DNA of 64,000 nt from a virus. Lineage: Duplodnaviria; Caudoviricetes. Where the stretch lies: IMG/VR virus record IMGVR_UViG_3300007177_000352, positions 19,385 through 83,384 of that record. One strand, given 5' to 3'. A model generated the notes under the pieces. That model saw nothing but the letters and a program-made list of their open reading frames with translations, ran no database searches and was not told the DNA's origin. Positions 5,230 through 60,437 of this stretch are shown here, piece by piece. The position numbers and the translations under genes were made by a program. Within the stretch, counting starts at the first letter, position 1. The number at the start of each line of letters is the position of its first letter.

Positions 5230-6723
5230 ATGGCATTTCAATCTTGTGGACTCATGTCCAAAAAAATCGGTGCGTTAATCGGCGAGGAAGTTACTTACGG
5301 AGTTGACCCGCTATCATATACGGTCATTCCAGTGAATAGTGGTGCGGACTTCAAAATGGAAAATGACATGCAGGAACGCACCATGGTAATGCCGAACTTC
5401 TCACCTGTTGGCAAACTCAGTGGGTCAATGTCAGCTACGTCAACTATTCCAGTGGAGTTCTTAGGCGGCGGCGTTGATGAAGACCAAAAAGTTCAAGCGC
5501 CTTTCTATGATACCTTGATGCAAGCGAGTGGATTGGTGAAGCAAACTATCTACTTGCTGAATTGCACGGGTAGTACCGGGACGTGGTCAACCACTGAGAC
5601 GATAACACAAGCGGCCACCAAGGCAATTCATTTGGGAACAGCTAACCTATCAAGCGGGCACGATTGGAGTGGTACATCTCAAAAATTCTCAATCAACGTC
5701 AATGACGGCGGATTGACCGAGGTAACTCTTGACAGTGCCTGCACAAATGTCAGTGAGGTCGTGACTGAAATTAATTCACAGTTAAGTACCGCGGGCGTGA
5801 CTGGGGCCGAAGCCTATGCAAGTACCAATTACGTTGGCATTCGTACCACAACTGTCGGAGCCGATAAGACTATCGTCCTGGCCACCGGGAGTCCTAATGC
5901 ACTCACTACACTAGGCTGGACGGCTGGAACTTATACAGGCACCGCGGCGGTCACCGGGAGTTTGTTAGATGCTAGGAGTACGGGTGGAGGCGTAGCTACC
6001 TTGACGGTAATAACGTCGGGTGATTTTGGGATAGGCACTGTTACCGGGGCCGGCGGAGGTTCGGCAACGGTTGCAATTGCAACGGACGGAATTGCTTATA
6101 CGCCTACCAGTGTATGTGCAAATATGAAATCATTGACACTGCATTTCATTCGTGATATGATGAAACATATATCCACTGGAATGCGGGCCGACCCGACTTT
6201 CACCTTTGAAGTGGGTAAGCTGGCCACCGCTTCTTTTGCACTCACGGGCTTATATACTGACCCTACTGACACGTCTCCTCCGGCGGCTACGGTGCCTAGT
6301 GTTTTACCGTTCCCATTGATGGGTGCAACGATTGTCATTGGTGACCTGTCGCCCACGCTAATGGCTTGCAGTAAGTTAGAACTCAAGCTAGGCAATACGA
6401 TAACCAAGCACATGGACTTATCTGATAGTAACGGTATGTCCAGTGTCGGTATCACGGGCCGCAAGCCAACGGGTTCTATTGACCCACTGGCGCCCTCCTC
6501 CTTAACTGACTTCAATCCGATTGCTATTGCAAAGGCTGGCACCAAACTAAGGATAGAGGCATTATTTGGCAGTACCCATGGCAACCGTTTCAAAGTGGTG
6601 ATTCCGTATGCCCAATTGGATATGCCAGAACTGGGTGACCGGGAGGAACTGGTTGTCTATAATCTCAACTTTACTTGCACTGGCAATAAAGGCGACGACG
6701 AGTTTTATATCGCTTTCGTATAA
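5230..6723 (+). CDS. Tail tube (major tail) protein with large inserted accessory domain(s)
   Basis: N-terminal 'E.TYG.DP' and C-terminal 'GR.P.GSI.P.A' / 'G.T.GN...V.IP.AQ' tube motifs flank a Thr/Gly-rich insertion at about 5545-6085. Confidence 0.8.
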   Translation: MAFQSCGLMSKKIGALIGEEVTYGVDPLSYTVIPVNSGADFKMENDMQERTMVMPNFSPVGKLSGSMSATSTIPVEFLGGGVDEDQKVQAPFYDTLMQASGLVKQTIYLLNCTGSTGTWSTTETITQAATKAIHLGTANLSSGHDWSGTSQKFSINVNDGGLTEVTLDSACTNVSEVVTEINSQLSTAGVTGAEAYASTNYVGIRTTTVGADKTIVLATGSPNALTTLGWTAGTYTGTAAVTGSLLDARSTGGGVATLTVITSGDFGIGTVTGAGGGSATVAIATDGIAYTPTSVCANMKSLTLHFIRDMMKHISTGMRADPTFTFEVGKLATASFALTGLYTDPTDTSPPAATVPSVLPFPLMGATIVIGDLSPTLMACSKLELKLGNTITKHMDLSDSNGMSSVGITGRKPTGSIDPLAPSSLTDFNPIAIAKAGTKLRIEALFGSTHGNRFKVVIPYAQLDMPELGDREELVVYNLNFTCTGNKGDDEFYIAFV

Positions 6724-6818
6724 CAATTTACCCATAGCCAGTTGCATTGCTTAACATCGTAATTGCACTGGCTATATTCAATTTCTTTTACAAGCCCAAT
6801 GATGGGCGAGGTCAATTT

Positions 6819-7334
6819 ATGGCATTAACGTTAAGTAGTGTAACGAATCAAAAAAGCGTCCCTGTCTTCATAGGTGACGGAGAGCGTGACAAGGTATTGT
6901 TAGGAATTAAATTCCTACTCATGGATGACGAACGGTGGGGGAAGATGATTGGGGAACTCATTGATGAAGATAACCCATCTGGTGACGCGGCTAATGAAGG
7001 TGGCGAAGAGAAGCGGCCCAAACGGAAGTTTATTGAATCCTTACGGGTGAATAAAAAAGCCGTGTTCAAGGTATGTAAGGAAGTGGTTATCTTGAGTGAG
7101 TCGGGTCTTCAATTGAACCTTGAAGTGGCCGACGTAGATAGTGACGGTAATCCACAGTATGACGAATTTGGTGAGGCAATCACCCGCATGGTAACAGCCG
7201 ATTTGAAGAAAGGTGATAAGCTGGAAGGTGAAGCACTGGCCGCCTTCTTTAGTTTTGTGGCAACGGTTCAACAAGTAGTGGATTACTACTCGAAGCACGT
7301 AGTGAATGTCCACCAGCGTGACAAAAAAAAGTAA
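6819..7334 (+). CDS. Tail assembly chaperone G
   Basis: Follows the tube gene and ends in a slippery A-run. ATG 6819 (RBS GAGG) is preferred over 6747. Confidence 0.65.
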   Translation: MALTLSSVTNQKSVPVFIGDGERDKVLLGIKFLLMDDERWGKMIGELIDEDNPSGDAANEGGEEKRPKRKFIESLRVNKKAVFKVCKEVVILSESGLQLNLEVADVDSDGNPQYDEFGEAITRMVTADLKKGDKLEGEALAAFFSFVATVQQVVDYYSKHVVNVHQRDKKK

Positions 7335-7774
7335 CCCAATACCGTAACCTCTTTGAGGAGGATAATCTTATTGAGGTTGCAAACTACTGGGCGAGTGGTC
7401 AAAGTAGTAAGGATAAACCAATGGAGGAGGTTGAATCTGAAATTAACCTCCTCGTTGACCCAGAGACCGCGGCCAAGCTAGTCGAACAGTTGAAACGCGA
7501 TGCAACCCCGGACGAGTGTCATATCCTCCCTAAAAATTGGGAAACGTTTCTTTTTTGGCAACGTATATCCAGTCACTGGTTATACGGTGCCATGGGTGGT
7601 ATCTTAGGTTTAGACTGGGGGACTGTGTATGCAAAGGTGAGCCTTTATCACCAGTCCCCACCAGAGGAACTGAAAGAGCGTTACGGTTTTGAAAGAGTCA
7701 CTTTGATGATGATTGAGGGTGTGGAGGCTATGGAACGTGAGGCAAGGCGGGTGCTAAATGAAGACAATAAGTAG
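7322..7774 (+). CDS. Tail assembly chaperone T part of the GT fusion (DUF1799-like)
   Basis: -1 frame reads ...NLIEVANYWASG...; motifs 'NWETF..W......W..G.MGG..GLDW' and 'ME.EA...LN'. Confidence 0.75.
   Translation, partial: QKKVTQYRNLFEEDNLIEVANYWASGQSSKDKPMEEVESEINLLVDPETAAKLVEQLKRDATPDECHILPKNWETFLFWQRISSHWLYGAMGGILGLDWGTVYAKVSLYHQSPPEELKERYGFERVTLMMIEGVEAMEREARRVLNEDNK
7325..7331 (+). other. Programmed -1 ribosomal frameshift heptamer A AAA AAG
   Basis: GAC AAA AAA AAG TAA at the end of G. The -1 frame is open from 7322 into the 7421..7774 ORF. Confidence 0.8.
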
Positions 7775-7841
7775 AGAATTACAGAGCATGGTTAACGTTT
7801 GTATGCAGTACAAACTGAGTATATTTCTTGAACGTGTTGAT

Positions 7842-11224: not shown

Positions 11225-12040
11225 ATGGATGATACCTTTGATTGGCAAACTGTGCAATTCACGGAGGCCATTGATGTTTTGAGTGACAAGGTAAATATAC
11301 CGGTGGAGGTTAGAGGACAAGTTCTAACTGCTATGCAAGAAACAGCATTCTATGTCACTGGAATGACCCGCGCCGATGCAATCAGTGAAGTGCATGATAG
11401 TCTAAACAACATCATAGCCAATGGCGGCACGATTACGGACTTCAAAAGGGACTTCAAGGCAATCGCAGAGAAGACTGGTTTTACTCCAAAGGAGGGAGTG
11501 GCAAGGCGAGCGGAGGTGGTATTTGAAACGAATATTCATACTGCACTCAATGCCGGGTCGATGCAACGTATGAGGGAAACAGCTACCACCCGGCCGTATG
11601 CTAGTTTGATGACGGCGGGTGGGGCCAGGACATGTGGTAATTGTGCAATGATGGGGGGCGTGACGATGACCATTCAGCAATGGGATACCCGCGGCGGACC
11701 TCCTTTTCACCATCGTTGCCGCTGTGAATTAAGGAGCTTCTCTGTCACGCAAATGGAGAAGTACGGATTAAAGGAATTTAACCCTGACACTGACACAATG
11801 ACCTATCGTGGTAAGAATGGTGAGACTAGGCAAGTGAGTATGAAAGACACGTATCAATACGTTAATCCTCATACTGGTAAGACCGAGACCATCCCAGTGG
11901 GTATCTCACCCGGTTTCAATTATGCGAAGGGATTAGGTGGAACGCAACCCGTGAATGATGCCGTGCAAGCCAAAGTGAGTACATTGCCAGCGACTTTACA
12001 AACGATGGTCAAGACCGACTTTGCAAACGGTGGGCAATAA
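11225..12040 (+). CDS. Minor head protein F (Mu gpF / SPP1 gp7 family)
   Basis: Motifs 'AF.V.G', 'R.EVVFETN...A.NAG', 'PP.HHRCRC' and 'G...GFNY'. Confidence 0.88.
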   Translation: MDDTFDWQTVQFTEAIDVLSDKVNIPVEVRGQVLTAMQETAFYVTGMTRADAISEVHDSLNNIIANGGTITDFKRDFKAIAEKTGFTPKEGVARRAEVVFETNIHTALNAGSMQRMRETATTRPYASLMTAGGARTCGNCAMMGGVTMTIQQWDTRGGPPFHHRCRCELRSFSVTQMEKYGLKEFNPDTDTMTYRGKNGETRQVSMKDTYQYVNPHTGKTETIPVGISPGFNYAKGLGGTQPVNDAVQAKVSTLPATLQTMVKTDFANGGQ

Positions 12041-12074: not shown

Positions 12075-12581
12075 TTAAGCATCCTTACTTGAAAGGAGTG
12101 GTTTACGTCGCCGCTCCTTTGGCCTAACCCACACCCGGGCCATTTGACTCTTAGTCTTCTTAATGGCAGGCATGGCTTCTATCTTCCTAATCCAACCTCT
12201 GTCACTTAAAATCCGTGCCAAAAGATGTTTATCCGGTCTCCTAGTTGATAGGTCATTGGGATAAAACCTTTCTAGGAATGATTGAGTGACAATCTCTTCT
12301 GGTGACTCAGTAGAGAGGTATTCATTGAGAGTCTTTTCTATCTCATTACGCCGAGGGTTAATCCATTTTGGATTAGGTTGGTTACTCCACACCCATCCTC
12401 CAGGTGAGTTATATTTGCAATAACCTCGGTCCTTGAGGACGTGTGATAGCAGGTGTTTATCACCCCGCGGTGGATTAGGGCCCAGCACGTCCTCACTGGT
12501 AAAGAGGTCAGCGGACGGGTTAATGGTAAGGTATTTTAGAAACTGAGTTTCTATATGTCTCGTCCTGATTTCGTTACTCAT
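12075..12581 (-). CDS. Hypothetical protein with two internal repeats (possible tandem winged-helix)
   Basis: DKHLLSHVLKDRGY and DKHLLARILSDRGW. Start 12581 is preferred (12605 possible). Confidence 0.5.
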   Translation of the reverse strand: MSNEIRTRHIETQFLKYLTINPSADLFTSEDVLGPNPPRGDKHLLSHVLKDRGYCKYNSPGGWVWSNQPNPKWINPRRNEIEKTLNEYLSTESPEEIVTQSFLERFYPNDLSTRRPDKHLLARILSDRGWIRKIEAMPAIKKTKSQMARVWVRPKERRRKPLLSSKDA

Positions 12582-13842
12582 TTGGCATCCTCTGTAGATA
12601 GGCATTTAAAGTAACTCGCGCAATACCTGACAGCTTTTGCATTTCAGATATGTTGCCGTTGCAAACACGATGCAATGCGGTAATGTATTGCATCATCAAT
12701 TGATTCTGGAATTGTTCCATCACGGTGGCTTTGTTCGGAATAGAGTTAAATCTTAGAACAAAACCAGTGTCAGTCGCCTCCTTATCCACCTCCACCGTCT
12801 CGGCTGGCGTAACATCCATATCGTCACTGCCATTCAGCATGTCTTTTACTAGCTTGACACTCACCTCACCCTCCTCCTTAAAAATCGCAATCCGTTGGCA
12901 AACTTGTTTCAACTCACGGACGTTGCCAGGCCAATTTAGACCGGTCAAGTAGTCCACCGCCTTTTCGCTGAATTGCACTCCCGTTAGGAACGTCTTTAGG
13001 AGTAACGGAATATCCTCTCTTCTCGTGCGCAACGAAGGCACTTCAATGGTGAATCCATTGAGTCTATAGTAAAGGTCTTCCCTGAATTTACGTTCCCTGA
13101 CTAGTTGCTTTAGTGAGTGGTGAGTCGCGCAAATAACACGCGCACTGGTATGCTGTGCCTTAGTATCGCCCACTTTGACGTAAGTACCGTTTTCAAGTAC
13201 CCTTAGCAACTGGGCCTGGCATTGCATTGGCATGTCACCCACCTCGTCCAAAAATAGGGTGCCGCCATTGGCCTCCTCAAATAACCCAATCTTATTTCTG
13301 TCTGCCCCCGTGAAGGCGCCCTTGACATGACCAAAGAGTTCTGAATTAAGAAGCTCCGCCGTGAAGCCGGCGCAGTTTATTTTCACAAACTCACCTTGAC
13401 GGCCTGACAGGCTATGCAGGTCGGTTGCAACTAATTCTTTACCTACCCCCGTTTCCCCATGAATGTACACTGGGATTGCATGGGGGGCGAGCTTCGCAAT
13501 GACCTTTTTTAAGTCGTTAATGGGCTTGGATTCGCCAATGATGCAACTGGTGATTTTTAATCCCAAAGCACGCTTGAGGTCGTCCACCGTGAATGGATTG
13601 ACCAGCGGGGTGAGGTTTTGTTGACGGTGGTAGTTTGCCTTTTCTGATGTGCAAATGATTATCCCCTCCGTCGGCGCGAAGCTCTCGTCAACTATCTGTA
13701 TATCCGCCTCCCCAGTAAACTCGTCAAATTGACGGAAGGAGGTGATGGCCATCGTGTGGTATCCCAACGATTTGGCAGCTTTTTCTAATGATACCGCTAA
13801 ATCCTGCGAAGGTGTTGCTATTAATATTGTCTGCTTTTTCAT
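12574..13842 (-). CDS. Sigma-54-dependent enhancer-binding activator (NtrC/Fis family) with degenerate receiver domain
   Basis: Walker [15 protein letters not shown] loop, Walker [26 protein letters not shown], and a Fis-type HTH ([17 protein letters not shown]). Confidence 0.93.
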
Positions 13843-13874
13843 GTGATTAATACCGCTGTTTGCTTACTCCCTAT

Positions 13875-13902
13875 AATATAGTATTATTTTTCTATTTTTC
13901 AA
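13875..13902 (-). promoter_or_regulatory. Possible sigma-70 promoter for the activator gene
   Basis: TTGAAA-16-TATATT on the minus strand. Confidence 0.4.
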
Positions 13903-13988
13903 TACACTTTAATAAAAAAAATTTTCGTATATCCACTTTATCGCCGCGGTGGTAAAAAAATACCCATACCGCGGGGGGCGGTAGGGGG

Positions 13989-14007: not shown

Positions 14008-14030
14008 GTCTTATGCAAATTAATGAAATA

Positions 14031-14070
14031 AAAAACCGCCAGTGAGTGATAAAACTCACTGGCGGTTTTT
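14031..14070. terminator. Bidirectional intrinsic terminator
   Basis: AAAAACCGCCAGTGAGT-GATAAA-ACTCACTGGCGGTTTTT directly after the stop of 14070..14294. Confidence 0.85.
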
Positions 14071-14294
14071 TAGTTGGCCTTGATTTTTAAGGAATCTAAA
14101 ACCAATATACCCATTCCAGAAAGAATTAACATGAAACCACCGAAGGCAAAACCGAGAGTCTTTATCTCCTCATAAAAATGAGGAGGCATCGGTATCATTG
14201 ATATATATGCTAGGGTAAATAATAAAAGCCCACCTACAAGGTGTGGCATGGCCTTGCAAGCCACTTTCAATTCTTCAATCGTTTTCAATTGCAT
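14070..14294 (-). CDS. Small two-TM membrane protein
   Basis: ATG 14294 with GGAGG RBS and two hydrophobic segments. Confidence 0.55.
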   Translation of the reverse strand: MQLKTIEELKVACKAMPHLVGGLLLFTLAYISMIPMPPHFYEEIKTLGFAFGGFMLILSGMGILVLDSLKIKAN

Positions 14295-14393: not shown

Positions 14394-14915
14394 TTACACT
14401 CCTCCCCTTTCTATCCACCGACCCAATAACCAGAGTAAATCAGATAGCCTATTTAGGTATTGAATAACCAGTGGACTGACATACTCACCAGTGTCTTTTA
14501 ACGCAACCGCGGTACGTTCCACCCGACGGCATACCGTCCTAGCTACCTCCAAAAAAGCTACGTCCACTCGGTCGCCAGGTATCGCCCAATCGTACTCACC
14601 TTTATTCAACTGGTATCTACTCCGTAGGTTTTCTAAACTGGGGAGTAATTGGTTTTCAGTCAAGAGAGCGTGAATCTTGCATTTGCTATCGGGCGACGCT
14701 AGGGAGGAGCCGATGTTAAATAGCTGGCTTTGCAGTGTCTTTAAAAGAGTAAAGACCTCACTCTTAGATTTGTTGAATGCCCTTGCCACTCCTAAGTTTG
14801 CAACCAGTTCGTCTATCTCACCAGTCACCTGTATTCTTAGGTCGGCCTTTGATACACGACCGGGCCCTATAAGTCCTGTTTGCCCATTGTCACCATCACG
14901 GGTTGTTATACTCAT
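14394..14915 (-). CDS. pduO: PduO-type ATP:cob(I)alamin adenosyltransferase
   Basis: Motifs 'ITTRDGDNGQTGL', 'VSK.D.RI...G.IDEL...LG.AR', 'VARTVCRRVER' and 'YLNRLSD'. ATG 14915 with AGAGG RBS. Confidence 0.92.
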   Translation of the reverse strand: MSITTRDGDNGQTGLIGPGRVSKADLRIQVTGEIDELVANLGVARAFNKSKSEVFTLLKTLQSQLFNIGSSLASPDSKCKIHALLTENQLLPSLENLRSRYQLNKGEYDWAIPGDRVDVAFLEVARTVCRRVERTAVALKDTGEYVSPLVIQYLNRLSDLLWLLGRWIERGGV

Positions 14916-14987
14916 ACTCGCCTCTAATAAAAGAACCTTGAAATTGATAAATATGTAGTCCAAACCATCAATCATCAATCTAACCAA

Positions 14988-15020
14988 CCCCGCTAGTTTA
15001 TAAGACTAGCGGGGTTTTTT
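14988..15020 (+). terminator. Intrinsic terminator hairpin (U-tract on the + strand) between nrdJ and pduO
   Basis: CCCCGCTAGT-TTATAAG-ACTAGCGGGG-TTTTTT. Confidence 0.65.
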
Positions 15021-15027
15021 ATTGGGA

Positions 15028-17019
15028 TTAGCTAATCACACCACATACGCCGTTGTCACAATTATCGGTGCCAGCATCGCGGTCAAAGCCTTGACTAGCA
15101 CTAAACCGTTCCCAATCAATGGGCTTGAGTTTAGTTGAGTAGGCATTAAACACCGCTTCGCTGACCGGGGTCTGTGGCAAGTATAATCCGGGGGTGACAT
15201 TCTTTAGGTCAAACCGCGGCATAAACGCCGTCCCTACATACGAATCCCAATTCTTGTGTAACCAGTCGGCTATTGAAGGTATCTCGTCAGGGAGGTACGT
15301 TATTGTGCAACTGGCATTCGTGTCGCACCAATTGTCCATCATCCGCCGATAGTTTTCTAACTGGTCAAGGGCACCGTGTCTCTCCACCTCCACCCCGTCG
15401 CTATCCATTCGCCACTTGAAGTTTGGATTATCCCATTTGATAGGGAAGTTGATTAGCACGTTGCCGGGTGTCAAGGGATTGGGCTTGACCTCGTAGCCGT
15501 GCGATTCTAAGAGAGAGACCACAGGGTCGTCGCTGTTAAAATTCTGGTAGTTAAAGATGTGCTTCGCCAGTGGGTGATGTAATCCCTCACTCACCCCCGC
15601 GGCTTTGCCAGCTGTGCCATCGGGCTTGACCGTGGTGACGTAATAGGGGAGAGGTAGGCCCAACTCTCTGGCCATTGAGTGCGCACCGTGAGTCGCCGCC
15701 GCCCGAAGTCGCCGCCATTGTGCCTGCGTAAGTCCACTCTCGGCCACGCCCATGACGCCCAGACCTACCAGACGGAAGTGTTGATTGTTGCGGTGCCAAC
15801 GTTCACTTAATACACCGTCTTTTAGGTCAACGCACGTTTGTACATACGCCGCCCGTGCTAAATAGTATGCAGTGTCAAATAACTCAGTCAGGTTATGCCA
15901 TGCCGACTGGGCGACATTTAAGACCACTTGGTTGCATAACCCACCATTGACCAATGGCTGTTCACCGCACGGGTTTATCACGATAGCGTCTTCAAAACGA
16001 GACCGTAACGCTTCAGTATTGCAGATACCTGGATCACCACTGTCTCCATTTTCTAGGATTGTTTGCATAAGCTCATGGAGTGTGGATAAGCTAGGCCGCG
16101 TCTCAAATAGCACCGTGTTGTTAGTCATCCCCCGCCACATCTTGTTAACCTCCCAGAATTTACGCTTGACACTCATAAACTGGTCGATGTCACGATGGGT
16201 ATTGGATAGCATCACCAAGCCAGCGGAACGCCGACTTGATAGGGTCTCGCCGGTTAAGGCAAATATGTCCAGGAGGTCTATGACGGATAACGCACGACCT
16301 ACCCTGCTATTTAAGATATGGGCAATTATCTCAAAGGAACGCGCTATCTTTTCGTCCCCACTGGTTCGCCAGCCATAGCCGCTAGTCACCTGTCCCTTGC
16401 CGCGGATTTCTGAAAAATCTAAGACCAGTTTTTTGGCAATGACATTCCTGCCCTCATACTCATGGGCCACTAGCTTCCCCAATGCCTTCGCCCATGCCAC
16501 TGCACTGTCGCCTACCTTGATTGTCCACACGCCGTCGGTCAAGGTCTCCTCATTTTTGGGATTGCCTTTCTCAACACGATTTGAATGGATAACCTGTATC
16601 TCTGGAATTGGTTGTGCGAAGCCAAACAGGCAACCACTCTGGGGACGAATGGATACCCCGCAACCTTGCAATAGCAACCAATAGGCGTCTACCACATCAT
16701 AGACCGTCTCGTACTGCAAGCCGGCGCAATTAAATGATGTGACCTCCACCTCACGGGATTTTTCAGTGTCACCCATCCATTTGACCCGGCCTGCTAAAAA
16801 GCCCCGCCGTTCCATTTGAATTTGATGCAAGATGGTCAACTCGCGTTCCTCTGCTACGTTCAAAGGACGGCCTAGTTGACGCTCCCGTAGCCATCTTTGA
16901 TGACGGCCTACCCTATGGTAAATATCCTTCCTGGATTCCAGTTGACCATTGGGGAGTACACGGGCGTATTTTTGCAATTCCGTTACCATTGCCCTGACTT
17001 CTTTCGAGTCCATTAGCAT
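15028..17019 (-). CDS. nrdJ: Class II adenosylcobalamin-dependent ribonucleotide reductase (monomeric RTPR-like)
   Basis: Motifs 'FNCA', 'RRSAG', 'NPCGEQ', 'R.VGLG.MG', 'TTVKP.GT', 'N.SCTI' and a C-terminal CX4C redox pair (CDNGVC). Confidence 0.92.
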   Translation of the reverse strand: MLMDSKEVRAMVTELQKYARVLPNGQLESRKDIYHRVGRHQRWLRERQLGRPLNVAEERELTILHQIQMERRGFLAGRVKWMGDTEKSREVEVTSFNCAGLQYETVYDVVDAYWLLLQGCGVSIRPQSGCLFGFAQPIPEIQVIHSNRVEKGNPKNEETLTDGVWTIKVGDSAVAWAKALGKLVAHEYEGRNVIAKKLVLDFSEIRGKGQVTSGYGWRTSGDEKIARSFEIIAHILNSRVGRALSVIDLLDIFALTGETLSSRRSAGLVMLSNTHRDIDQFMSVKRKFWEVNKMWRGMTNNTVLFETRPSLSTLHELMQTILENGDSGDPGICNTEALRSRFEDAIVINPCGEQPLVNGGLCNQVVLNVAQSAWHNLTELFDTAYYLARAAYVQTCVDLKDGVLSERWHRNNQHFRLVGLGVMGVAESGLTQAQWRRLRAAATHGAHSMARELGLPLPYYVTTVKPDGTAGKAAGVSEGLHHPLAKHIFNYQNFNSDDPVVSLLESHGYEVKPNPLTPGNVLINFPIKWDNPNFKWRMDSDGVEVERHGALDQLENYRRMMDNWCDTNASCTITYLPDEIPSIADWLHKNWDSYVGTAFMPRFDLKNVTPGLYLPQTPVSEAVFNAYSTKLKPIDWERFSASQGFDRDAGTDNCDNGVCGVIS

Positions 17020-17381: not shown

Positions 17382-17419
17382 GGTTAAGTTGAAAATACTT
17401 TGACGTTTAGTGGTGATTA

Positions 17420-17945
17420 TATCTGTCTAGGTCCCTTTGGCTTGTATAGGTCCAAGACTTTATGTCTATGACCTAGTTTGCGAGTCCTAGACATTGGAAA
17501 CCCGCATGGATAAAGGCTTGTAAGGTCCGTGAAGGTCAAAAGGCACTTTTCGAACTTCTTTCTATAGAAAGTTTTTTTCAAAAAAGATTGCATAATATAT
17601 TATCTTAAAAAGGACCTATACGACCTATACAGACCTTACAAGCCTTTATCCATGCGGTTCTTAGAGTGTATAGGACCTCTTTAAGAGACTCATACACGTC
17701 TAGGTCCCTCTATTTTAGAAAAAAGTCCTTAGAATAGTTGAATCTCTAATCCATTCAAAGACTTACCTAAGATTGCCATGATACTGTCTAGGTCCAGGTC
17801 CTCTACAATCCGTTTCAAAAAAGTTGTCAATTTGGGTACTTTTTCGTTTACAGAAACCTAGCAACCATGCGGTTCTTAGCATACCCATCGAGGCACTTTT
17901 CACACTGTCTAGGTCCTAGACGGCGTGAATGCCCTAGACAAGATT
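17420..17945. repeat. Non-coding repeat-rich element A (origin-like); homologous in inverted orientation to about 59996..60232
   Basis: Many GTATAGGTC / TCTAGGTCC boxes, a perfect 26-bp inverted repeat (17502-17527 / 17632-17657), and CCATGCGGTTCTTAG present twice. Confidence 0.75.
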
Positions 17946-18020
17946 GACGGCCTTTTAAGTTTTTCAGTCGCCAGTCACTAGTCCTACCTATACAATTTTT
18001 TTAAAATTTTTCTGAAACTA

Positions 18021-18049
18021 TTGACAATTGATTTGGTATCAAATATACT
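18021..18049 (+). promoter_or_regulatory. Near-consensus sigma-70 promoter for dnaN
   Basis: TTGACA-17-TATACT. Confidence 0.85.
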
Positions 18050-18089
18050 ATCAATAATAGTAAAAATTACCTCACCTATAAACCATCTT

Positions 18090-19253
18090 ATGAATTTAGA
18101 ATTAACTAAAAAAGAGCTTCTTTCCCCTCTAAAGACCGCAGCTTCCGTTATAGAAGACCGCCGGGCCGGCATGACAGTACTCGGTAATATTCTTTTGCAG
18201 GCCGACGGCAAACAACTAAACTTAACGGGCGGTGATGGCGACATTGAGGTGACTTGCAACCTCCCTATTGAGACCAGCGCCACCTTTGCCATCACTGTTC
18301 CTAAAAAGCTATTAGACATTACACGGTCGGTGAATGACGGCGGTGACTTGCATATTTCAGATAAAGACGATAAGCTAATTATAAAGTCTGGCAAAAGCCG
18401 CTTTACCTTGGCCACCTTGCCTGCCGACAATTACCCAGCCAGCCCGGTGTTAGAGGTCAATAAACAACTGACTCTCCCTCAATCGGAATTGAAGTCACTG
18501 ATAAAACAATGTGCATTTTGCATAGCCTCCAACGACATACGCTATTATCTAAACGGCGCGTTATTAGAAATAAATGATGGCGAAGCATACATGGTTGCCA
18601 CCGACGGCCACCGTATGGCAGTGACACCATTGGAATTGTTAGTCAGTCCAGTGGCGACCGCTGTGCCTACGAAAAAAACTAAGAAGTCTGCGGCTACCGA
18701 GGCCACCGATTCGGATAATGCTAAAATCATTATCCCCCGTAAAGCCATCTATGAGTTACTCAAGTTACTCGGTGATGACGGGGACGTGCAAATAAGCTAC
18801 ACTGATAGTCACGTCCAATTTATTCTAGGGGACTCGCTTCGTTTAACGAGTAAGCTAATTGACGGGCAGTTCCCCGACTGGCGAAGCGTAATTCCCGCCA
18901 ATGCAACTAACATTGCCCGTGTGTCTAAGGCCGACCTCTATTCAGCCATAGGCCGTGTAACTCTACTCTCTAACGAGAAATACAAAGGAGTGCGACTGAC
19001 ACTCTCTAAAGACCTCTTGACGGTTAATGCGAAAAATCCTAATCAAGAGGAGGCGACGGAAGAATTAGAGGTGATATATGAAGGCGAGCCTCTTGAAATT
19101 GGCTTTAACGGCGCCTATCTACTAGAATCAATAGCGGCTGTGAATACCGCTGATGTGCAACTGGCATTCACAGATAGTAACTCCTCTGTGGTGATTACTC
19201 AAAATGAAGACGAGGCAGAAGGCAAGTGGATTATTATGCCAATGAGGTTGTAG
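18090..19253 (+). CDS. dnaN: DNA polymerase III beta sliding clamp
   Basis: Motifs 'VLGNILL', 'SG.SRF.L.TLP...YP', 'D.RYYLNG.L', 'ATDGHR', 'IIPRKA', 'SKLIDG.FPD', 'IGFNG.YL' and 'IIMPMRL'. ATG 18090 lies downstream of the promoter. Confidence 0.96.
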   Translation: MNLELTKKELLSPLKTAASVIEDRRAGMTVLGNILLQADGKQLNLTGGDGDIEVTCNLPIETSATFAITVPKKLLDITRSVNDGGDLHISDKDDKLIIKSGKSRFTLATLPADNYPASPVLEVNKQLTLPQSELKSLIKQCAFCIASNDIRYYLNGALLEINDGEAYMVATDGHRMAVTPLELLVSPVATAVPTKKTKKSAATEATDSDNAKIIIPRKAIYELLKLLGDDGDVQISYTDSHVQFILGDSLRLTSKLIDGQFPDWRSVIPANATNIARVSKADLYSAIGRVTLLSNEKYKGVRLTLSKDLLTVNAKNPNQEEATEELEVIYEGEPLEIGFNGAYLLESIAAVNTADVQLAFTDSNSSVVITQNEDEAEGKWIIMPMRL

Positions 19254-27049: not shown

Positions 27050-27268
27050 TCACCATCCCCGATACAACCTAACACCGATTTTAATCGGTTTCATGCCTTT
27101 ATCCATAAAGGCCAATTCCAAATTCTGAAGCGCAACCCCAATAGCACCAACCTCGGTCACACTAGCGCCAGTTACTTTTGTCTCGTCTCCAGTGAAAGAG
27201 ATTGTTGCCAAATAGCAACAATCAGTCTTTTGTACTGAGAGAGTGGGTATCACCATTTCTTTACTCAT
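27050..27268 (-). CDS. Hypothetical protein
   Basis: 72-aa ORF with AAGAG RBS. Confidence 0.5.
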   Translation of the reverse strand: MSKEMVIPTLSVQKTDCCYLATISFTGDETKVTGASVTEVGAIGVALQNLELAFMDKGMKPIKIGVRLYRGW

Positions 27269-27317
27269 AATATTTACTCTTTTCGTTAGTTTTCAAAGTC
27301 TTTCATACCTTAGATAC

Positions 27318-27333
27318 TTCAAATTTGATGCCA
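27318..27333 (-). promoter_or_regulatory. Sigma-54-like -24/-12 element (GG-N10-GA)
   Basis: TGGCATCAAATTTGAA, 50 nt upstream of ATG 27268. Confidence 0.45.
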
Positions 27334-27386
27334 TATCAAAATATCAACTAGAATCAACTACTTGAGTCGCGTCACAAATCAAGCAA

Positions 27387-27422
27387 TAAAATGTCTATAC
27401 AAAAAATTGTATAGCGATTTTA
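27387..27422. promoter_or_regulatory. Palindromic operator/enhancer: two inverted TTGTATAG-NN-ATTTTA motifs
   Basis: TAAAAT-GT-CTATACAA-AAAA-TTGTATAG-CG-ATTTTA. Confidence 0.6.
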
Positions 27423-27474
27423 CATAAAGATTGACGATTGCCGAAAAAGTCAGTAAACACGTCACTTTTTTGGT

Positions 27475-27490
27475 TGGCAAGGATTTTGAA
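27475..27490 (+). promoter_or_regulatory. Sigma-54-like -24/-12 element (GG-N10-GA)
   Basis: TGGCAAGGATTTTGAA, 46 nt upstream of ATG 27536. Confidence 0.45.
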
Positions 27491-27535
27491 TTATATAAAA
27501 TATCAAAACGAAATATAGATAAAAGGAGACTAGTC

Positions 27536-27778
27536 ATGGCGACACAGGCTATTTTGGCAGGAAATGATATGCAATCAGGTTTATCAGATGACCTGACTTT
27601 ACTCTTAGTTAGAGTCAAGGATAAGTTAAACGGACTCTATGAGATATGGGGAGCTTTCAACGGAGGAGTAGCATCAAACTTTGGAAAATCAATACCATTT
27701 CATAGTGTGATTGATATACCACTTAATGAAGTATTTTTTTTAGAGGACATAGACAATGAACCAGAACCAATTGGGTAA
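27536..27778 (+). CDS. Hypothetical protein
   Basis: ATG 27536 with AAGGAG RBS is preferred over TTG 27431. Confidence 0.55.
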   Translation: MATQAILAGNDMQSGLSDDLTLLLVRVKDKLNGLYEIWGAFNGGVASNFGKSIPFHSVIDIPLNEVFFLEDIDNEPEPIG

Positions 27779-30174: not shown

Positions 30175-31127
30175 TAGAAGATGTTGGATGGCAAGCGGTG
30201 ACATCTTTCTTAGATAGATTAGCACCTAATGGAAAGTGGACTACCAGTGGAGTATATAACGCTCTTAATCCCCAGAGGGACGATAAGAAACTAGGTAGTT
30301 TTAAGGTGATAACTCACTCAAGATACTGGGGAGACTATGCAGTCGGCGTAGGTGGCAAGTCAGCGGTAGGACTTTGGTATTATTTAACCACTGGACAAAC
30401 TTTACCTACCTCTAAGAATGAGTATGCCGAGGTTGCTAAAAAGTTTGCCGCGTGGTTAGCTATACCACCATCCAATCAAGTGTGTAGTTACACTAAGCCA
30501 GGTTACAAAGTGAATACGCCGCCACCTAAGAAAGAGGTATTTAATCCCGATGTGCCTGACCACTTGTTAAGGAGGATACCCATGTATCATCATGAGTTAG
30601 GTGAACCATCTAATATATATTGGTATACCAGAAGCTATCTGGTCTATCGTTTTGAGGAGACGCCTGACCGTAAAAAGGAGTTTAGACCAGTGCATTGGTC
30701 TATGATAGAGAAGCGGTGGGTATTTGGTGACCCAGCCGGGTGTTTGTTGCCACTGTATAGAATAAACCACTTGCAACCGTCACAGAAAATCATCTTTTGC
30801 GAAGGTGAAAAGGCGGCGGACGCGGCTAGTCAATATTTTCCAACGGGATTATGTACAACCACCGCCCACGGTTCAAAGTCGCCTTATCGTTCCGATTTTG
30901 AGAAGGTCAAGGGGCATGAGGTTATCATTTTTCCTGACAATGATTTAGCTGGGTTCTTATACGCCTGTCAGGTGGCAGAATTGTGTACTAAGGCAGTTGC
31001 CAGTCATGTCAAAATTGTCTATTGGAACTGCCGAGATGTACCAGAAAAATGGGATTTGGCAGACCCATTAGAAAGCGGGTGGCCCAAGGAGAAGTTACTC
31101 CAGTCGGTCAAGGTGTTTAATTGGTAA
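30129..31127 (+). CDS. Primase-like protein (TOPRIM domain, no helicase domain)
   Basis: Motifs 'W.D.A.G.GG', 'K.FRP', 'PLY', 'CEGEKAADA', 'PDND.AG' and 'KWDLAD'. Confidence 0.8.
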   Translation: MPKDREYQASYDLRMIEDVGWQAVTSFLDRLAPNGKWTTSGVYNALNPQRDDKKLGSFKVITHSRYWGDYAVGVGGKSAVGLWYYLTTGQTLPTSKNEYAEVAKKFAAWLAIPPSNQVCSYTKPGYKVNTPPPKKEVFNPDVPDHLLRRIPMYHHELGEPSNIYWYTRSYLVYRFEETPDRKKEFRPVHWSMIEKRWVFGDPAGCLLPLYRINHLQPSQKIIFCEGEKAADAASQYFPTGLCTTTAHGSKSPYRSDFEKVKGHEVIIFPDNDLAGFLYACQVAELCTKAVASHVKIVYWNCRDVPEKWDLADPLESGWPKEKLLQSVKVFNW

Positions 31128-45800: not shown

Positions 45801-48800
45801 CCTCCCGGCCTCATTAGCAGAGGTGACATTGGCATCGGTCATCACCTTCATTAAGTCACCACCGAGTGACTCCCCATTGATACTCTTAAACATGTCGCTT
45901 TGTGATTGGAGGATGCCAATATACGTTTGAGTATCGGCCATCAAAGTATCCACTGTGACGCCTAAACTATCTGCTAATGCCTTGAGTTGGTCTGGACTCA
46001 TTTGGTCAAAATAACCTGCTACCTCGGTGGCCGTTACGCCCGCTTGCGTTAATGAATCCGATAGCATCGGATACTTATCCACTAGCTTACTCAAAGCCGC
46101 TTCATTATCCGTGGCACCGGTGGCAATCTTGTGCATTTCGTCTTTGAATGAACCGATATTCGTTTGTAACTCGGTGGCCGCGGTTAAGTAATCCGTGGTC
46201 TTTTGAGTAATGTCCTCTATAGAGAGTCCGGTCAAGCCCATGCTCTCGGCCCAAGCCATTAACTCCCCATCACTCATGTTGGCTAGGGAACGAGCCGCTT
46301 CTTTGGTATTCAAAGTCATTGCACTCGCCCCTAGATTCAATTCCGGGAACTGTTTAGAGAGGTCACTGATAGTCTTTTCAGCACCGCCGGCGCTATCATA
46401 GACGCCGCGCATTGATTCTCTGAATTTATCCACCTGTTCATTGTTTGTGAATAATTCATCAAATGCAGGGGCCAACTCCAGTATCTTATCGTGCAATTTA
46501 CGTTGCGACTCATTGGTTAGGTCAAAGCCTTGAACTAAATCATAGAGTCCCTTGCGCGTCTTAGGTAACTCTATTCCAAGTCCTTTGAATGAGTCATTGA
46601 GTGTCTTATTCAGGTCAACTGCCTTCTTAGCTTGGGCCTTCAAGGTCGTCCCGGACGCTCCTCCGAACTTTTGATTAAAGTCTTCTATGGCTTTGTAGTA
46701 ATTGGCAAACTGAGGGGCACCTTTTATTAGGGCCGCAAACGTTTCTTCACCATCCTTACCTAACTTGGCAACGGATTGAGTGAGTTTGTAAAATTCTTCT
46801 CGCGTGGTAGGGAAGGCAGTATTGATACCGGGGAGGGTGCTACCTTGAATCTCTTTCAAAGATTTATTCAGTCCACTGAGGCTGTTTGTGAACTCAATAT
46901 TCGTACCTGACACACTGGCAAAGTTATCTTTAAAGAAGGTCATAGAGGAACTGAATTTATCAACACCACCCAATGAATCAATTAATCCTTTAGACATGAC
47001 GGTAGTACTTAAACCTGCCGACTTGAAAACCTCTTTGAGTCCTAACATCTGATTAATCAGATTATTAAGTTCTTCTTCTGGCCCATCGAAGGCATTAACC
47101 ATCTCTTTTAGAGACCTATAAAAACCAATTTCGTCTGTTTTGATAACAGGAACGTCACTACTAATTTCTTCCCCACTGGAAAGTTTAATCGCGTCCTGGA
47201 TTCGAGAAGCAAATACTTCGGCCAGTTCACCTGTAATAGATTCTGGAATAGCGATGCCGGTCACGTCGGTGAAAATTTTACCAATTTCACCCGTGAGGAC
47301 GTTTTGTAATTGGTCAACTGGAAGGTCTTTCAATTGGTCAGCAGAGTTATTAACAAAGTCCGTCAAACGTTCCCCTAATTTGGCGGAGACCTCATCTTGC
47401 AAACCACCTTTCATAGCCTTGTCGGCGGAACTCACAAAGCTGGTGAGAACGCCATCCCACGTTTCGGCGCGGGCGGCTTGATTAAAAGTGCCATCCAAGA
47501 CCTGTTTAAAGTTACGTTGGAAGTTGCCGCCAAGGTTAGTTTTTATATCAGCCCCAGCTAACATAATATTATCAACAGCACTTTTGACCATGGTCGTCCG
47601 CATCGTTTGAAATGACTTATCAAACCACTCCTGATCTTTGTTCTCCATAGCTTGGATGTTGTAACGGAAGTTCCCCATTCCTTTTAACAGGTCGTTGTTT
47701 CCTAAGTTAAGAGTTTCGCTGACCTTCTCAATAGTCTTTTTAGACTCGCCCAACATGTCATTGAGTTTCTTGATAGTTCCTTCATCTAATGCCTCGGTCC
47801 CGGTGCGCGTCTTACTCTTAACCAACCAGCCGCCTTTACGGGTTTCAGTAAAGGACTTGGAATAGGTTGCATCCAGTCCCTTCATAGATACATTAATCCA
47901 CTCGGCGGTACGGACGAATTTCGCACCTATACCAGACATACTCATAAGTTTGCCGGCAATCATACCACCAATTGGCCCCAAAGGCGTCATTGACCCTAAG
48001 AGTTGGGCCGCACCTGTGGCAGCACCGGCCATGTCGCCTTTCAACATAGAGAGACCTACTGACAACGCGCCCATTCCCGGCGTACTTCCACCACCACCTA
48101 AGAGGCCGCCTAGCGCACCTTTCGCACTTCCTAATGAACCAACTAAACTTCCTAAACCACCGCCGGCGCCACTACTACCAATAAGTCCTGAAATAGCTTT
48201 ACCGACTCCTCCTAAACCACCAGAGAGGTTACCCAACGACCCTGACAGGCCGCTGATAAAATTCCCAATGCCTCCGCCACTTCCACCTCCACCAAGCATT
48301 CCGCCAATCGTGGATAAAATCGACCCTTTCCCACTTTGCCCACCACCAAATAAGCTACCAAGGGAAGATAATATTGAACCTCCACCACCACCGAATAATT
48401 TACCGATTCCACTGGTAATAGTACTCATGATGCCATCACCACCACCACTAAATAAACTACCAATTCCTTTAGTGATGGTACTCATAAATCCACCGTCTCC
48501 TCCTCCATTGAATAGAGACGATATACCACCCGTTATCTTAGATAGAAAACCGCCATCCCCGCCTCCTCCAAATAGACCGCTTAACTTGCCACTTATACCA
48601 CTAAAGAAGCCTCCTATCTTATCCGTGAGGCCGCTAAACATGCCCATAATCCCATCGGATTTACCTTGGCAATTCTCTGTCATCACCTCAGTTGCTTCTT
48701 TTAAGTCCGCGGCGTTTTGAATCGCAGGATTGTTAGCTACTTCCGCTAGGCATTGGCCGGCGGTATTAGCCATTTCTGCACCCACTTCCGAAGCGACTTT

Positions 48801-59921: not shown

Positions 59922-59995
59922 AAATTTATACCAATCAAAGTTAAGGAATTAAGAATTGTAGATGTCCCTTTCAAAGTGTCTAGGTCTTTTTAAAA

Positions 59996-60232
59996 GGTCC
60001 TAGACGTGTGAAAACCTAATGGATATGCGCTTTGTAAAGGCTGTATAGGTCGTATAGGTCCTTTTTAAGGTATATATATTTAAGAACCTCTTTTCTAAAA
60101 ATCTCTCTATAGAAAGAAGTTTAAAAAAGCCGTTTTGACCTTCACGGACCTTACAAGCCTTTATCCATGCGGCTTTCCAATGTCTAGGACATGTAAACTA
60201 GGTCATAGACGTAAGGTCCGGGACCTATACAG
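59996..60232. repeat. Non-coding element B, inverted diverged copy of element A
   Basis: Collinear with the reverse complement of about 17443..17708. Contains the exact 26-mer GACCTTACAAGCCTTTATCCATGCGG at 60147-60172. Confidence 0.85.
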
Positions 60233-60437
60233 AAAAGACGTACTTTTGACAGATATTTAAACCATTATCTGCCTACAAATTTTCATTTACTATTCTAAAT
60301 ATTAATAGACTCACACGGGCATTTTTAGTTTTTAGCAAGCTAAATATTAGGGGGAGGATTTGCCCCCTATTTTTTATCGCATAATATGGTATAATTCATA
60401 GCTTGATTATCTATGAAACTACCTATAAGAGGCTCAA

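Follow-up and report, generated by a model that had tools for sequence, protein, structure and literature searches.

What a bacteriophage may gain from its own activator of the sigma-54 RNA polymerase, and on which promoters such an activator would act, are the questions raised by a gene found in a 64,000-nucleotide stretch of viral DNA (Caudoviricetes). This stretch, here called the window, corresponds to bases 19385-83384 of the 83,384-base IMG/VR record IMGVR_UViG_3300007177_000352 (G000), which is 91% complete according to CheckV. The gene (12574..13842, minus strand; positions are those of the window, unless otherwise indicated) is an open reading frame (ORF) of 422 aa, starting with ATG, and encodes a bacterial enhancer-binding protein (bEBP), composed of a receiver-like domain, an AAA+ sigma-54 interaction domain, a lid, a linker and a putative Fis-type helix-turn-helix (HTH). 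The sequence suggests that the protein acts on three sigma-54-like promoters carried by the phage, rather than only on host promoters. It is rather probable, in our judgement, that this phage-made bEBP acts as an early-to-middle transcription switch through the host sigma-54.

Sigma-54 polymerase sits at promoters, locked until an ATPase opens it: a phage supplying the ATPase would be able to keep genes tightly off and then switch them on in an all-or-none manner, with no sigma factor of its own. In the proposed course of events, host sigma-70 RNA polymerase would transcribe the bEBP gene from a strong early-type promoter. The protein would act without phosphorylation, given the loss of the metal and phosphoryl pocket from its receiver-like domain. 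It would form an AAA+ ring, probably at a palindromic enhancer some 95 bp before the start sites, reached through the Fis-type HTH. Its GAFTGA loops would then remodel the host sigma-54 holoenzyme waiting at three TGGCA-N6-TTGA phage promoters, indicated as P1, P2 and P3. P1 would switch on a D5-type primase-helicase operon, while P3, of the divergent P2/P3 pair, would drive a RecE/RecT/primase/SSB operon.

Sigma-54-like promoters in the phage genome

Sigma-54 promoters feature GG at -24 and GC at -12, the C at -12 being nearly invariant. The 7.8 kb of non-coding DNA of the phage contain exactly three TGGCA-N6-TTGA sites, against 0.059 expected (uniform base frequencies; Poisson 3e-5), and the count stays three when the -24 element is relaxed to TGG. 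P1 is located outside the window, at 11966-11980 of G000, on the minus strand, 52 nt before a 103-aa gene, which is the first of an operon including DUF5131 and a D5_N/DUF5906 primase-helicase. P2 (TGGCATCAAATTTGA; 27319..27333, minus strand) is found 50 nt before the ATG at 27268, and P3 (TGGCAAGGATTTTGA; 27475..27489, plus strand) 46 nt before the ATG at 27536, which features the ribosome-binding site aaggag; P3 falls inside a naive ORF call starting at TTG 27431. The operon behind P2 (26221..27268, minus strand) is made of three small genes, of 72, 180 and 91 aa. The one behind P3 (27536..32963, plus strand) includes two small genes, a RecE-like PD-(D/E)XK nuclease, RecT, DUF2325, primase-like and resolvase-like genes and SSB, as assigned by PHROGs and Pfam.

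The same analysis also covers an 81-kb relative (G001), an independently assembled viral contig of 81,363 bases, which carries a homologue of the bEBP at locus L007. Three full sites are present in its 8.8 kb of non-coding DNA, against 0.067 expected. All six non-coding sites of the two phages face a start codon, and for five of them this is located 35-52 nt downstream of the -12 element. The relative also features a divergent pair, 136 bp apart vs 142 bp here; both pairs lie between the terminase and the RecE-like operon, and the proteins flanking them are only 30-38% identical between the two phages. The third site of the relative is about 300 bp upstream of its bEBP gene, pointing away from it.

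When whole genomes are considered, TGGCA-N6-TTGA is found four times in the 83-kb phage, vs 0.98 in 200 Markov shuffles (two of which reach four), and seven times in the relative, vs 0.78 (none of the 200 reaches seven); for the latter, the reversed-pattern control scores 0. The canonical form, TGGCA-N6-TTGC, is absent from either phage genome.

A candidate enhancer and its natural variants

Midway between P2 and P3 lies a 36-bp palindrome (27387..27422, no strand assigned), with 16-nt arms, 88% complementary, and the core CTATACAAAAAATTGTATAG at 27395-27414. The core, written as CTATAC-N8-GTATAG, occurs in two copies in the 83 kb, against 0.005 expected, the second copy being upstream of P1. 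The distance from the centre of the palindrome to the first T of the promoter is 69.5 bp for P1, 70.5 bp for P3 and 71.5 bp for P2, which corresponds to a position near -96. Enhancers are described 100-150 bp upstream in the accessible portion of a review (PMC7057263), and the position of the palindrome fits this description. The palindrome is a candidate enhancer, which the bEBP would bind. Together, the sigma-54-like promoters with A at -12 and their common upstream palindrome make up a small candidate phage regulon, which had not been part of the first-pass annotation of the gene.

Natural variants of the region were also considered. Part of the stretch is present in 20 DNA runs from 11 studies (wastewater, soil, freshwater), and contigs of four runs were compared over 27150-27650. 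Two variant lineages are seen, with 13 substitutions and 3 indels in 27300-27535, none of which touches P2, P3 or the palindrome core (50 nt in all); the chance of such an outcome is about 0.045, and a p of about 0.05 makes this test of conservation a weak one. Changed positions are found right beside the elements, at 27334, 27336, 27337, 27391 and 27471. P2 persists in variants where the gene behind it is replaced. The P3 module, for its part, can be preceded by different upstream sequences, in one case as TGGAA-N6-TTGA. In a further run, the switch region of the 83-kb phage is spanned by a 44-kb contig.

A number of observations, besides the weakness of the variant test, speak against a switch of this kind. 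The proposal presumes a host with rpoN. All six candidate promoters carry A in place of the C of the sigma-54 consensus at -12. Scans for canonical promoters show no enrichment: TGGCAC-N5-TTGCW, with up to 2 mismatches, is found at 42 sites vs 30.8±5.9, and a weighted scan requiring GG/GC returns 19 sites vs 18±4.5, its highest score falling short of the mean of the shuffles. Whole-genome counts of TGGCA-N6-TTGG, 3 in the 83-kb phage and 5 in the relative, are also above expectation. All TTGG and TTGT variants sit within ORFs; because of the TTGG excess, part of the whole-genome excess of TTGA sites is ascribed to coding bias, and the argument rests on the non-coding sites. The comparison of promoter sites covers two genomes only, the 83-kb phage and the 81-kb relative. 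As for the palindrome, the copy upstream of P1 also resembles a terminator hairpin, with its T-run, for the preceding gene. In the relative no palindrome is common to the three promoters, no k-mer of 8 or more is shared among the promoter upstream regions and no clear palindrome is found between promoters Pb and Pc; the only clear repeated palindrome, TTATGACAWWWTGTCA, is present in three copies between Pa and the bEBP promoter. Different binding sites are to be expected in the two phages, since the HTH helices of their bEBPs differ. Finally, no RNA run is found among the runs listed for the stretch.

The lack of enrichment for canonical GG/GC promoters in the phage is what would be seen if the activator worked mainly on host sigma-54 promoters, for example those of the flagellar, nitrogen or stress regulons. 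It would then act from solution or at host enhancers, and the TGGCA-N6-TTGA sites of the phage would be read by something else. A weak grouping of the AAA+ core with cellular proteins named flagellar regulator A (SH-aLRT 82) agrees with such a takeover of the host. Yet the three non-coding sites feature the exact sigma-54 spacing, a fixed distance from start codons, a common upstream palindrome and positional conservation; other phage contigs, described below, carry canonical sigma-54 promoters directly behind their own activator genes; and the bEBPs of the two phages have different HTH recognition helices, which fits private targets better than conserved host ones. An activator working mainly on the host is thus unlikely, and such an action is compatible with the proposed phage switch as a second activity of the same protein. 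The stronger statement, drawn from the negative canonical scans, of host targets only and no phage promoters was dropped once the TGGCA-N6-TTGA sites were found.

The AAA+ core and the C-terminal domain

The AAA+ core (residues 101-267; 13042..13542, minus strand) includes Walker A, the GAFTGA loop (13303-13320), Walker B and the arginine fingers. The Pfam domain Sigma54_activat (PF00158) is matched by residues 101-267 with an E value of 3.7e-64, over model positions 1-168 of 168, and its score, 215.9 bits, compares with a curated cut-off of 20.2; the domain is over cut-off in all ten family members. A second Pfam domain, AAA_lid_14, is matched by residues 272-342 (E 6.3e-15). Walker A corresponds to GETGVGKE (residues 129-136), the GAFTGA loop to residues 175-180, Walker B to LFLDEVG (residues 196-202, with DE at 199-200), the arginine-finger stretch to residues 253-262, with fingers R254 and R260, and sensor II to GNVRELK (residues 306-312, with R309). 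In an alignment of the ten family sequences these ATPase motifs are invariant or nearly so. Within the loop G175, F177, T178, G179 and A180 are invariant, position 176 being either A or S: GAFTGA or GSFTGA is present in all ten members, and in the distant member P0148. The AAA+ motifs had been described as intact, GAFTGA included, by the first-pass annotation, and all of them, together with the lid, are indeed found in place; we infer from them that the protein is an active ATPase.

NCBIfam models for NtrC, RtcR, NorR, NifA and others are aligned to the core only, the best partial matches being NtrC, RtcR and NorR; no equivalog cut-off is reached by the protein, every score being far below. 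The bEBP belongs to PHROG 7998 (E 1.1e-48), a family annotated as of "unknown function".

The C-terminal domain (residues 371-418; 12589..12732, minus strand) is predicted to be a divergent Fis-type HTH, made of three helices (371-393, 398-405 and 409-418), with a block mean pLDDT of 75-82. These values come from a full-length AF2 model, built on 10 sequences, with a mean pLDDT of 51, where the AAA+ core was not modelled; it only served for the secondary structure of the N- and C-terminal parts. The match of the bEBP to HTH_8 is weak (E 0.19; 11.9 bits, with a cut-off of 22). HTH_8 is matched, at E<=10, in five of the ten family members, with a best value of 5.7e-5, and the copy of the 81-kb relative is over the curated cut-off (23.5 vs 22 bits). 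The HTH claimed as intact is a prediction from the helices and from the matches in other family members, the match of the protein itself staying below the cut-off.

A derived bEBP may also work independently of sigma-54, as a repressor or as a sigma-70-dependent activator like TyrR, VpsR or NtrX, its ATPase serving for oligomerisation only. Regulators of this kind exist, judging from the accessible text of a VpsR study (PMC6158489), and the non-canonical -12 element of the phage sites would suit one of them. The retention of every ATPase motif, and of the GAFTGA or GSFTGA loop in the ten members and P0148, makes this very improbable for the phage protein. To our knowledge, the bEBP relatives which do without sigma-54 have lost GAFTGA.

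The receiver-like N-terminal domain

The N-terminal domain (residues 1-98; 13549..13842, minus strand) appears as a pseudo-receiver, where D52 is kept, T10-P11 takes the place of the acidic pair, N82 that of the Lys, and helix 3 is shortened. When folded alone by AF2, the N-terminal 100 aa reach a pLDDT of 88.3 and a pTM of 0.79. The order of elements in the model is β-α-β-α-β-(short turn)-β-α-β-α, to be compared with the CheY-like (beta-alpha)5 fold of receivers. A Foldseek search of PDB gave 25 matches at E<=0.001, headed by the receivers of ETR1, DctD, CheY4, FrzS and LuxO. In a VIA-align comparison with 48,161 chains, receivers also come first (Z 13.0, rmsd 2.0 Å, 94 of 100 residues aligned), and the receiver of NtrC4, a sigma-54 activator, scores similarly (Z 12.9, rmsd 2.0 Å).

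At the sequence level the relationship is fainter. The Pfam model of receivers, Response_reg (PF00072), is matched in none of the ten family members at E<=10, and phmmer found no meaningful match of the domain in PDB. A profile of nine N-termini matched 19 PDB sequences at E<=10, all weakly: 13 receivers, with RegX3 at the top (E 0.025), four designed alpha/beta proteins and two unrelated sequences. When aligned by hhalign to six canonical bEBP receivers, the domain scores a probability of 62.7% (E 7.2e-5, 55 columns). D52 is placed on the phospho-acceptor Asp, invariant in the six receivers, and T10-P11 on the Mg2+-binding acidic pair (E/D-D after strand 1). In the family alignment D52, E53 and F55 are invariant, as is P11, while the T at position 10 gives way to S in a minority of rows. 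The stretches IVDE and LVNPF correspond to residues 50-53 and 80-84, respectively. N82-P83 is found in the bEBP and in eight of the ten aligned members; K-P is retained in the more distant members P0008, P0009 and L007, and the persistence of the Lys in this branch fits with descent of the domain from a true receiver. Searched against 1.84 billion representatives, the N-domain profile gave 8 matches at E<=0.001. They include two family representatives, P0148, which has the same three-domain layout, and one true double-receiver protein (E 9.5e-4). The remaining four, with 5 to 15 short matched stretches each, look unrelated and were discarded.

The first-pass annotation had described a receiver which keeps the Asp position, lacks the acidic pocket and has lost the conserved Lys, KP being changed to NP, with no kinase present. 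All three statements on these residues are borne out by the alignments, and the identification as a pseudo-receiver, a receiver fold without the Mg2+/phosphoryl pocket, is confirmed at the level of the modelled fold and of the pocket residues. HATPase_c and HisKA have no match in the 83-kb record, as had been claimed; a kinase may be supplied by the host. On these grounds the activity of the bEBP would be constitutive.

Transcription of the activator gene and the gene downstream

The bEBP gene is preceded by a sigma-70-type promoter (13870..13910, minus strand), with TTGAAA at about 13897-13902 and TATATT at about 13875-13880. Further upstream a terminator (14026..14075, minus strand), formed by a hairpin and a T-run, parts an 89-aa gene from the bEBP unit; it corresponds to inverted repeat I3, with 22-nt arms, 95% complementary. 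A promoter element of the type GTATTGAAAAAT...TATATTAT precedes the bEBP gene in both phages, and other leftward genes. The placement of the gene behind an early-class sigma-70 promoter and a strong terminator supports the order proposed above, from early sigma-70 transcription to the activator, and then to sigma-54-type promoters.

Promoters of this early class, aaatatttt-N-GTATTGAAAAAT-N-TATATTAT, are found at 13870-13910 (minus strand) in the window, at 2082-2114 and 6317-6410 (minus strand) of G000, and, in the relative, at G001 29816, 46568 (minus strand) and 46871 (plus strand). The three copies of TTATGACAWWWTGTCA in the relative, two of them perfect, are located at G001 46702-46847 (L075/L195) and are confined to the interval separating a pair of divergent early-type sigma-70 promoters. 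The bEBP gene of the relative is driven by one promoter of this pair, and the layout resembles an operator region.

The downstream gene (12075..12581, minus strand) encodes 168 aa from its second Met; the longest ORF, of 176 aa, reaches 12605 and overlaps the stop of the bEBP gene. The protein contains two internal repeats (…DKHLL-x-ILxDRGW…) and has no Pfam or PHROG family. Four clusters of homologues were found among 5.8 billion proteins, which restricts it to this phage lineage. In the 81-kb relative the gene is adjacent to that of the bEBP and 51% identical. One homologue of the downstream gene and one of the bEBP feature the same length, 2641 bases, for their longest contig, which suggests a shared contig. 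An Atlas search gave only sub-threshold matches, to VapE/D5-type C-terminal regions with a TM of about 0.5, to be taken as a lead only.

Instead of being constitutive, the activator may be gated by its pseudo-receiver, docking a partner or ligand which controls assembly: the 168-aa protein, a host kinase or an anti-activator. The invariance of D52, E53 and F55 in spite of the loss of the pocket, the retention of the Lys in one branch, and the downstream gene itself, which overlaps the bEBP stop and accompanies the bEBP in the relative, all agree with gating. No evidence from sequence or fold, on the other hand, ties the 168-aa protein to a known bEBP partner, the VapE/D5 matches being leads only. 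We hold gating as a tentative possibility, while unphosphorylated, constitutive activity is kept in the proposed switch.

Phage origin of the gene

Around the bEBP gene, major head, Mu-type portal, MuF, large terminase and tail-fibre genes are present, along with RecE-like, RecT, SSB and DnaN ones, structural and replication genes being found on both sides. The 83-kb record contains no sigma-54 (rpoN) DNA-binding domain, and Sigma70_r2 and r4 are absent from both the 83-kb phage and the 81-kb relative.

Whether a fragment of host DNA, misassembled or simply contaminating, could account for the gene was considered, since the GenBank phage collection matches the bEBP mostly with cellular contigs that had been catalogued as phage. 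In the independently assembled relative, a bEBP copy with 47% identity and the gene that follows are again located beside MuF (79%) and portal (72%), the other flank being rearranged, and this conserved pair next to the portal module indicates that the gene is not a host fragment. The 44-kb contig from another run covers the switch region. The GC content of the gene is 0.475, vs 0.449±0.040 for long ORFs, and its trinucleotide use is typical of the genome. Across 185,579 species genomes, the 80 best-scoring matches include no close copy; they align to the core only, with 49% identity at most. An artefact of this kind, which the first-pass annotation had named as an outcome that would undo its reading, deserves practically no credit.

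The bEBP family and its phylogeny

The family was delimited from 8000 scored candidates: nine clusters, all without an assigned name, align to the bEBP over its full length, with 48-97% identity, and beyond them the score falls from 421 to 236 bits, to cellular bEBPs matching the core only. The longest contigs with a family member reach 83 kb. No member is included in the 80 best matches from the species genomes, nor in the 80 best from a JGI metagenome scan, which again align to the core only; in both scans cellular bEBPs prevail, matched through one conserved peptide. In the GenBank phage collection (50,697 records) no match reaches at least 60% identity or covers 80% of the protein. A viral scan with P0007 gave one core-only match, and a TerL scan a single closer relative, L081, 63% identical, whose layout differs and which contains no TGGCA-N6-TTGA sites.

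A phylogeny against cellular bEBPs, suggested as a check along with the annotation, was obtained as a quick IQ-TREE run on 51 core domains, with rows chosen by hand (8 family members, 21 of the 72 viral loci described below, and 22 of 111 listed cellular hits); the thorough search is incomplete. In this tree the bEBP family forms one clade (SH-aLRT 93), weakly sister (82) to five cellular proteins named in their source "sigma-54 specific flagellar transcriptional regulator A". The difference between the HTH recognition helices of the two phage bEBPs, mentioned above, is seen in the family alignment.

Short putative sigma-54 activators in other phages

The search of viral genomes for the activator domain, also suggested beforehand, recovered 72 loci with Sigma54_activat genes. 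In 42 of them (IMG/VR L021-L071; PHROG 7998) the protein is short, 242-299 aa, and features GSFTGA or GSYTGA. Four of these short forms, when closely checked, proved to contain a true Sigma54_activat domain (E 1e-52 to 1e-57) and no HTH. Helicase, exonuclease, Sak4, DNA polymerase and primase genes are found in their neighbourhood. In the 528 kb of the 42 loci, the canonical TGGCA-N6-TTGC occurs 48 times, vs 8 for the reversed control. In 27 of the 42 it lies within 120 nt after the activator gene (for example, activator L031:9881-10633 and promoter L031:10659-10673), and in 11 more loci TGGCAC-N5-CTGC is found there. The short forms make up a separate clade in the quick tree of 51 rows (SH-aLRT 98). 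Neither they nor the bEBP family have a close match in the 50,697 GenBank phage records.

The short proteins thus resemble the bEBP in being phage-encoded, in their GSFTGA or GSYTGA loop and in the presence of sigma-54 promoters in their own genomes. They differ in lacking both the receiver-like domain and the HTH, and in their canonical promoters, with TTGC or CTGC at -12. Several unrelated phage lineages may combine signal-independent sigma-54 activators of their own with phage-borne -24/-12 promoters, turning the otherwise silent sigma-54 polymerase of the host into a private channel for timed expression, a class of temporal switch not described so far; we consider the chances of this as evenly balanced. 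The phage timing devices known to us act on the sigma-70 polymerase, or bring their own sigma factor or their own polymerase.

In the two genomes compared here, the bEBP and the sigma-54-like sites are conserved and tied to replication and recombination operons. The A at -12 may make these promoters poor substrates for anything but the enhancer-bound activator of the phage itself. If the proposed switch is true, a set of environmental phages would depend on the sigma-54 of their hosts, where rpoN could be a locus of resistance to them; PHROG 7998 would acquire a function; a compact, kinase-free set of activator, promoter and enhancer would be available for synthetic circuits; and the sites would offer a natural test of how much the C at -12 matters in sigma-54 promoters.

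Comparison with known systems

The phage protein is most easily compared with group I bEBPs (NtrC, NtrC1/NtrC4, DctD, ZraR, LuxO), with which it shares the GAFTGA core and, as far as predicted, the REC-AAA+-HTH_8 order with its Fis-type HTH; its modelled N-terminal domain superposes on the receivers of NtrC4, DctD and LuxO. In contrast to them, it is phage-encoded, has no cognate kinase in the record and matches no receiver model by sequence, its receiver-like domain being some 20 residues shorter, with helix 3 reduced to a vestige and neither the acidic pair nor the Lys present.

FleQ/FlrA-type flagellar master regulators are bEBPs with an unphosphorylated receiver-like FleQ domain. The proposed arrangement of the phage protein is similar: an unphosphorylated receiver-like domain before an intact AAA+ core and a predicted HTH. 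The FleQ domain itself (PF06490), however, is found in none of the ten family members, where 21 families were matched at E<=10, and five FleQ-type N-domains give an hhalign probability of 17.9%, over 40 columns, vs 62.7% for canonical receivers. Membership in the FleQ-domain family was considered weak and set aside.

Precedents from phages are few. Pseudomonas aeruginosa phage YuA depends on host sigma-54, according to the accessible portions of two reports (PMC5053324; bioRxiv 10.1101/2023.10.13.562163), and is a precedent for a phage programme using this factor. No tblastn match to the bEBP was found in Pseudomonas phage records at E<=1e-5: YuA thus appears to encode none, and would have to depend on the activators of its host. 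The original work on its sigma-54 dependence is reportedly that of Ceyssens et al. (2008). Htm (Gp204) of Mosigvirus AV110 is a phage AAA+ protein "structurally similar to bEBPs" in the part of the report which is accessible (bioRxiv 10.64898/2026.10.06.757011). Like the bEBP, it is encoded by a phage, expressed early and proposed to act with the sigma-54 polymerase; according to its authors' account in that part, it has neither a GAFTGA loop nor an HTH, and its Walker B is changed, whereas GAFTGA and Walker B are intact here and an HTH is predicted. A putative sigma-54-like factor (HHpred E 0.67) is mentioned for Pectobacterium phage Q19 in the accessible text of its description (PMC7693777). 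No phage-encoded bEBP with GAFTGA was found in the literature searched, which left subscription journals mostly outside. Phage control through sigma-54 had been called unusual at the outset, which is a fair statement.

Other features of the genome

A gene for a PduO-type cob(I)alamin adenosyltransferase is found directly before that of a class II (B12-dependent) ribonucleotide reductase (14394-17019, minus strand); by sequence assignment, the phage supplies both a B12-dependent reductase and its cofactor-activating step. It also encodes its own full-length DnaN sliding clamp (18021-19253, plus strand), with a near-consensus sigma-70 promoter, TTGACA-N17-TATACT, at about 18023-18051. A single ORF of 7676 aa occupies 36891-59921 (minus strand), and has a counterpart of about 7050 aa in the relative (G001 1528-22686).

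Iterons of the TGTATAGGTCC / GGACCTATACA type crowd the large intergenic regions at 17382-18020, 59922-60437 and about 6500-7800 of G000. In one of these regions they are accompanied by a 36-nt inverted repeat (17502-17537 / 17622-17657). The iteron core, TGTATAG, is also found in the candidate enhancer palindrome. These regions may serve as origins or for partition, or offer additional binding sites; similar iteron clusters are present in the relative, at G001 30181-30423, 49769-50138 and 67152-67727.

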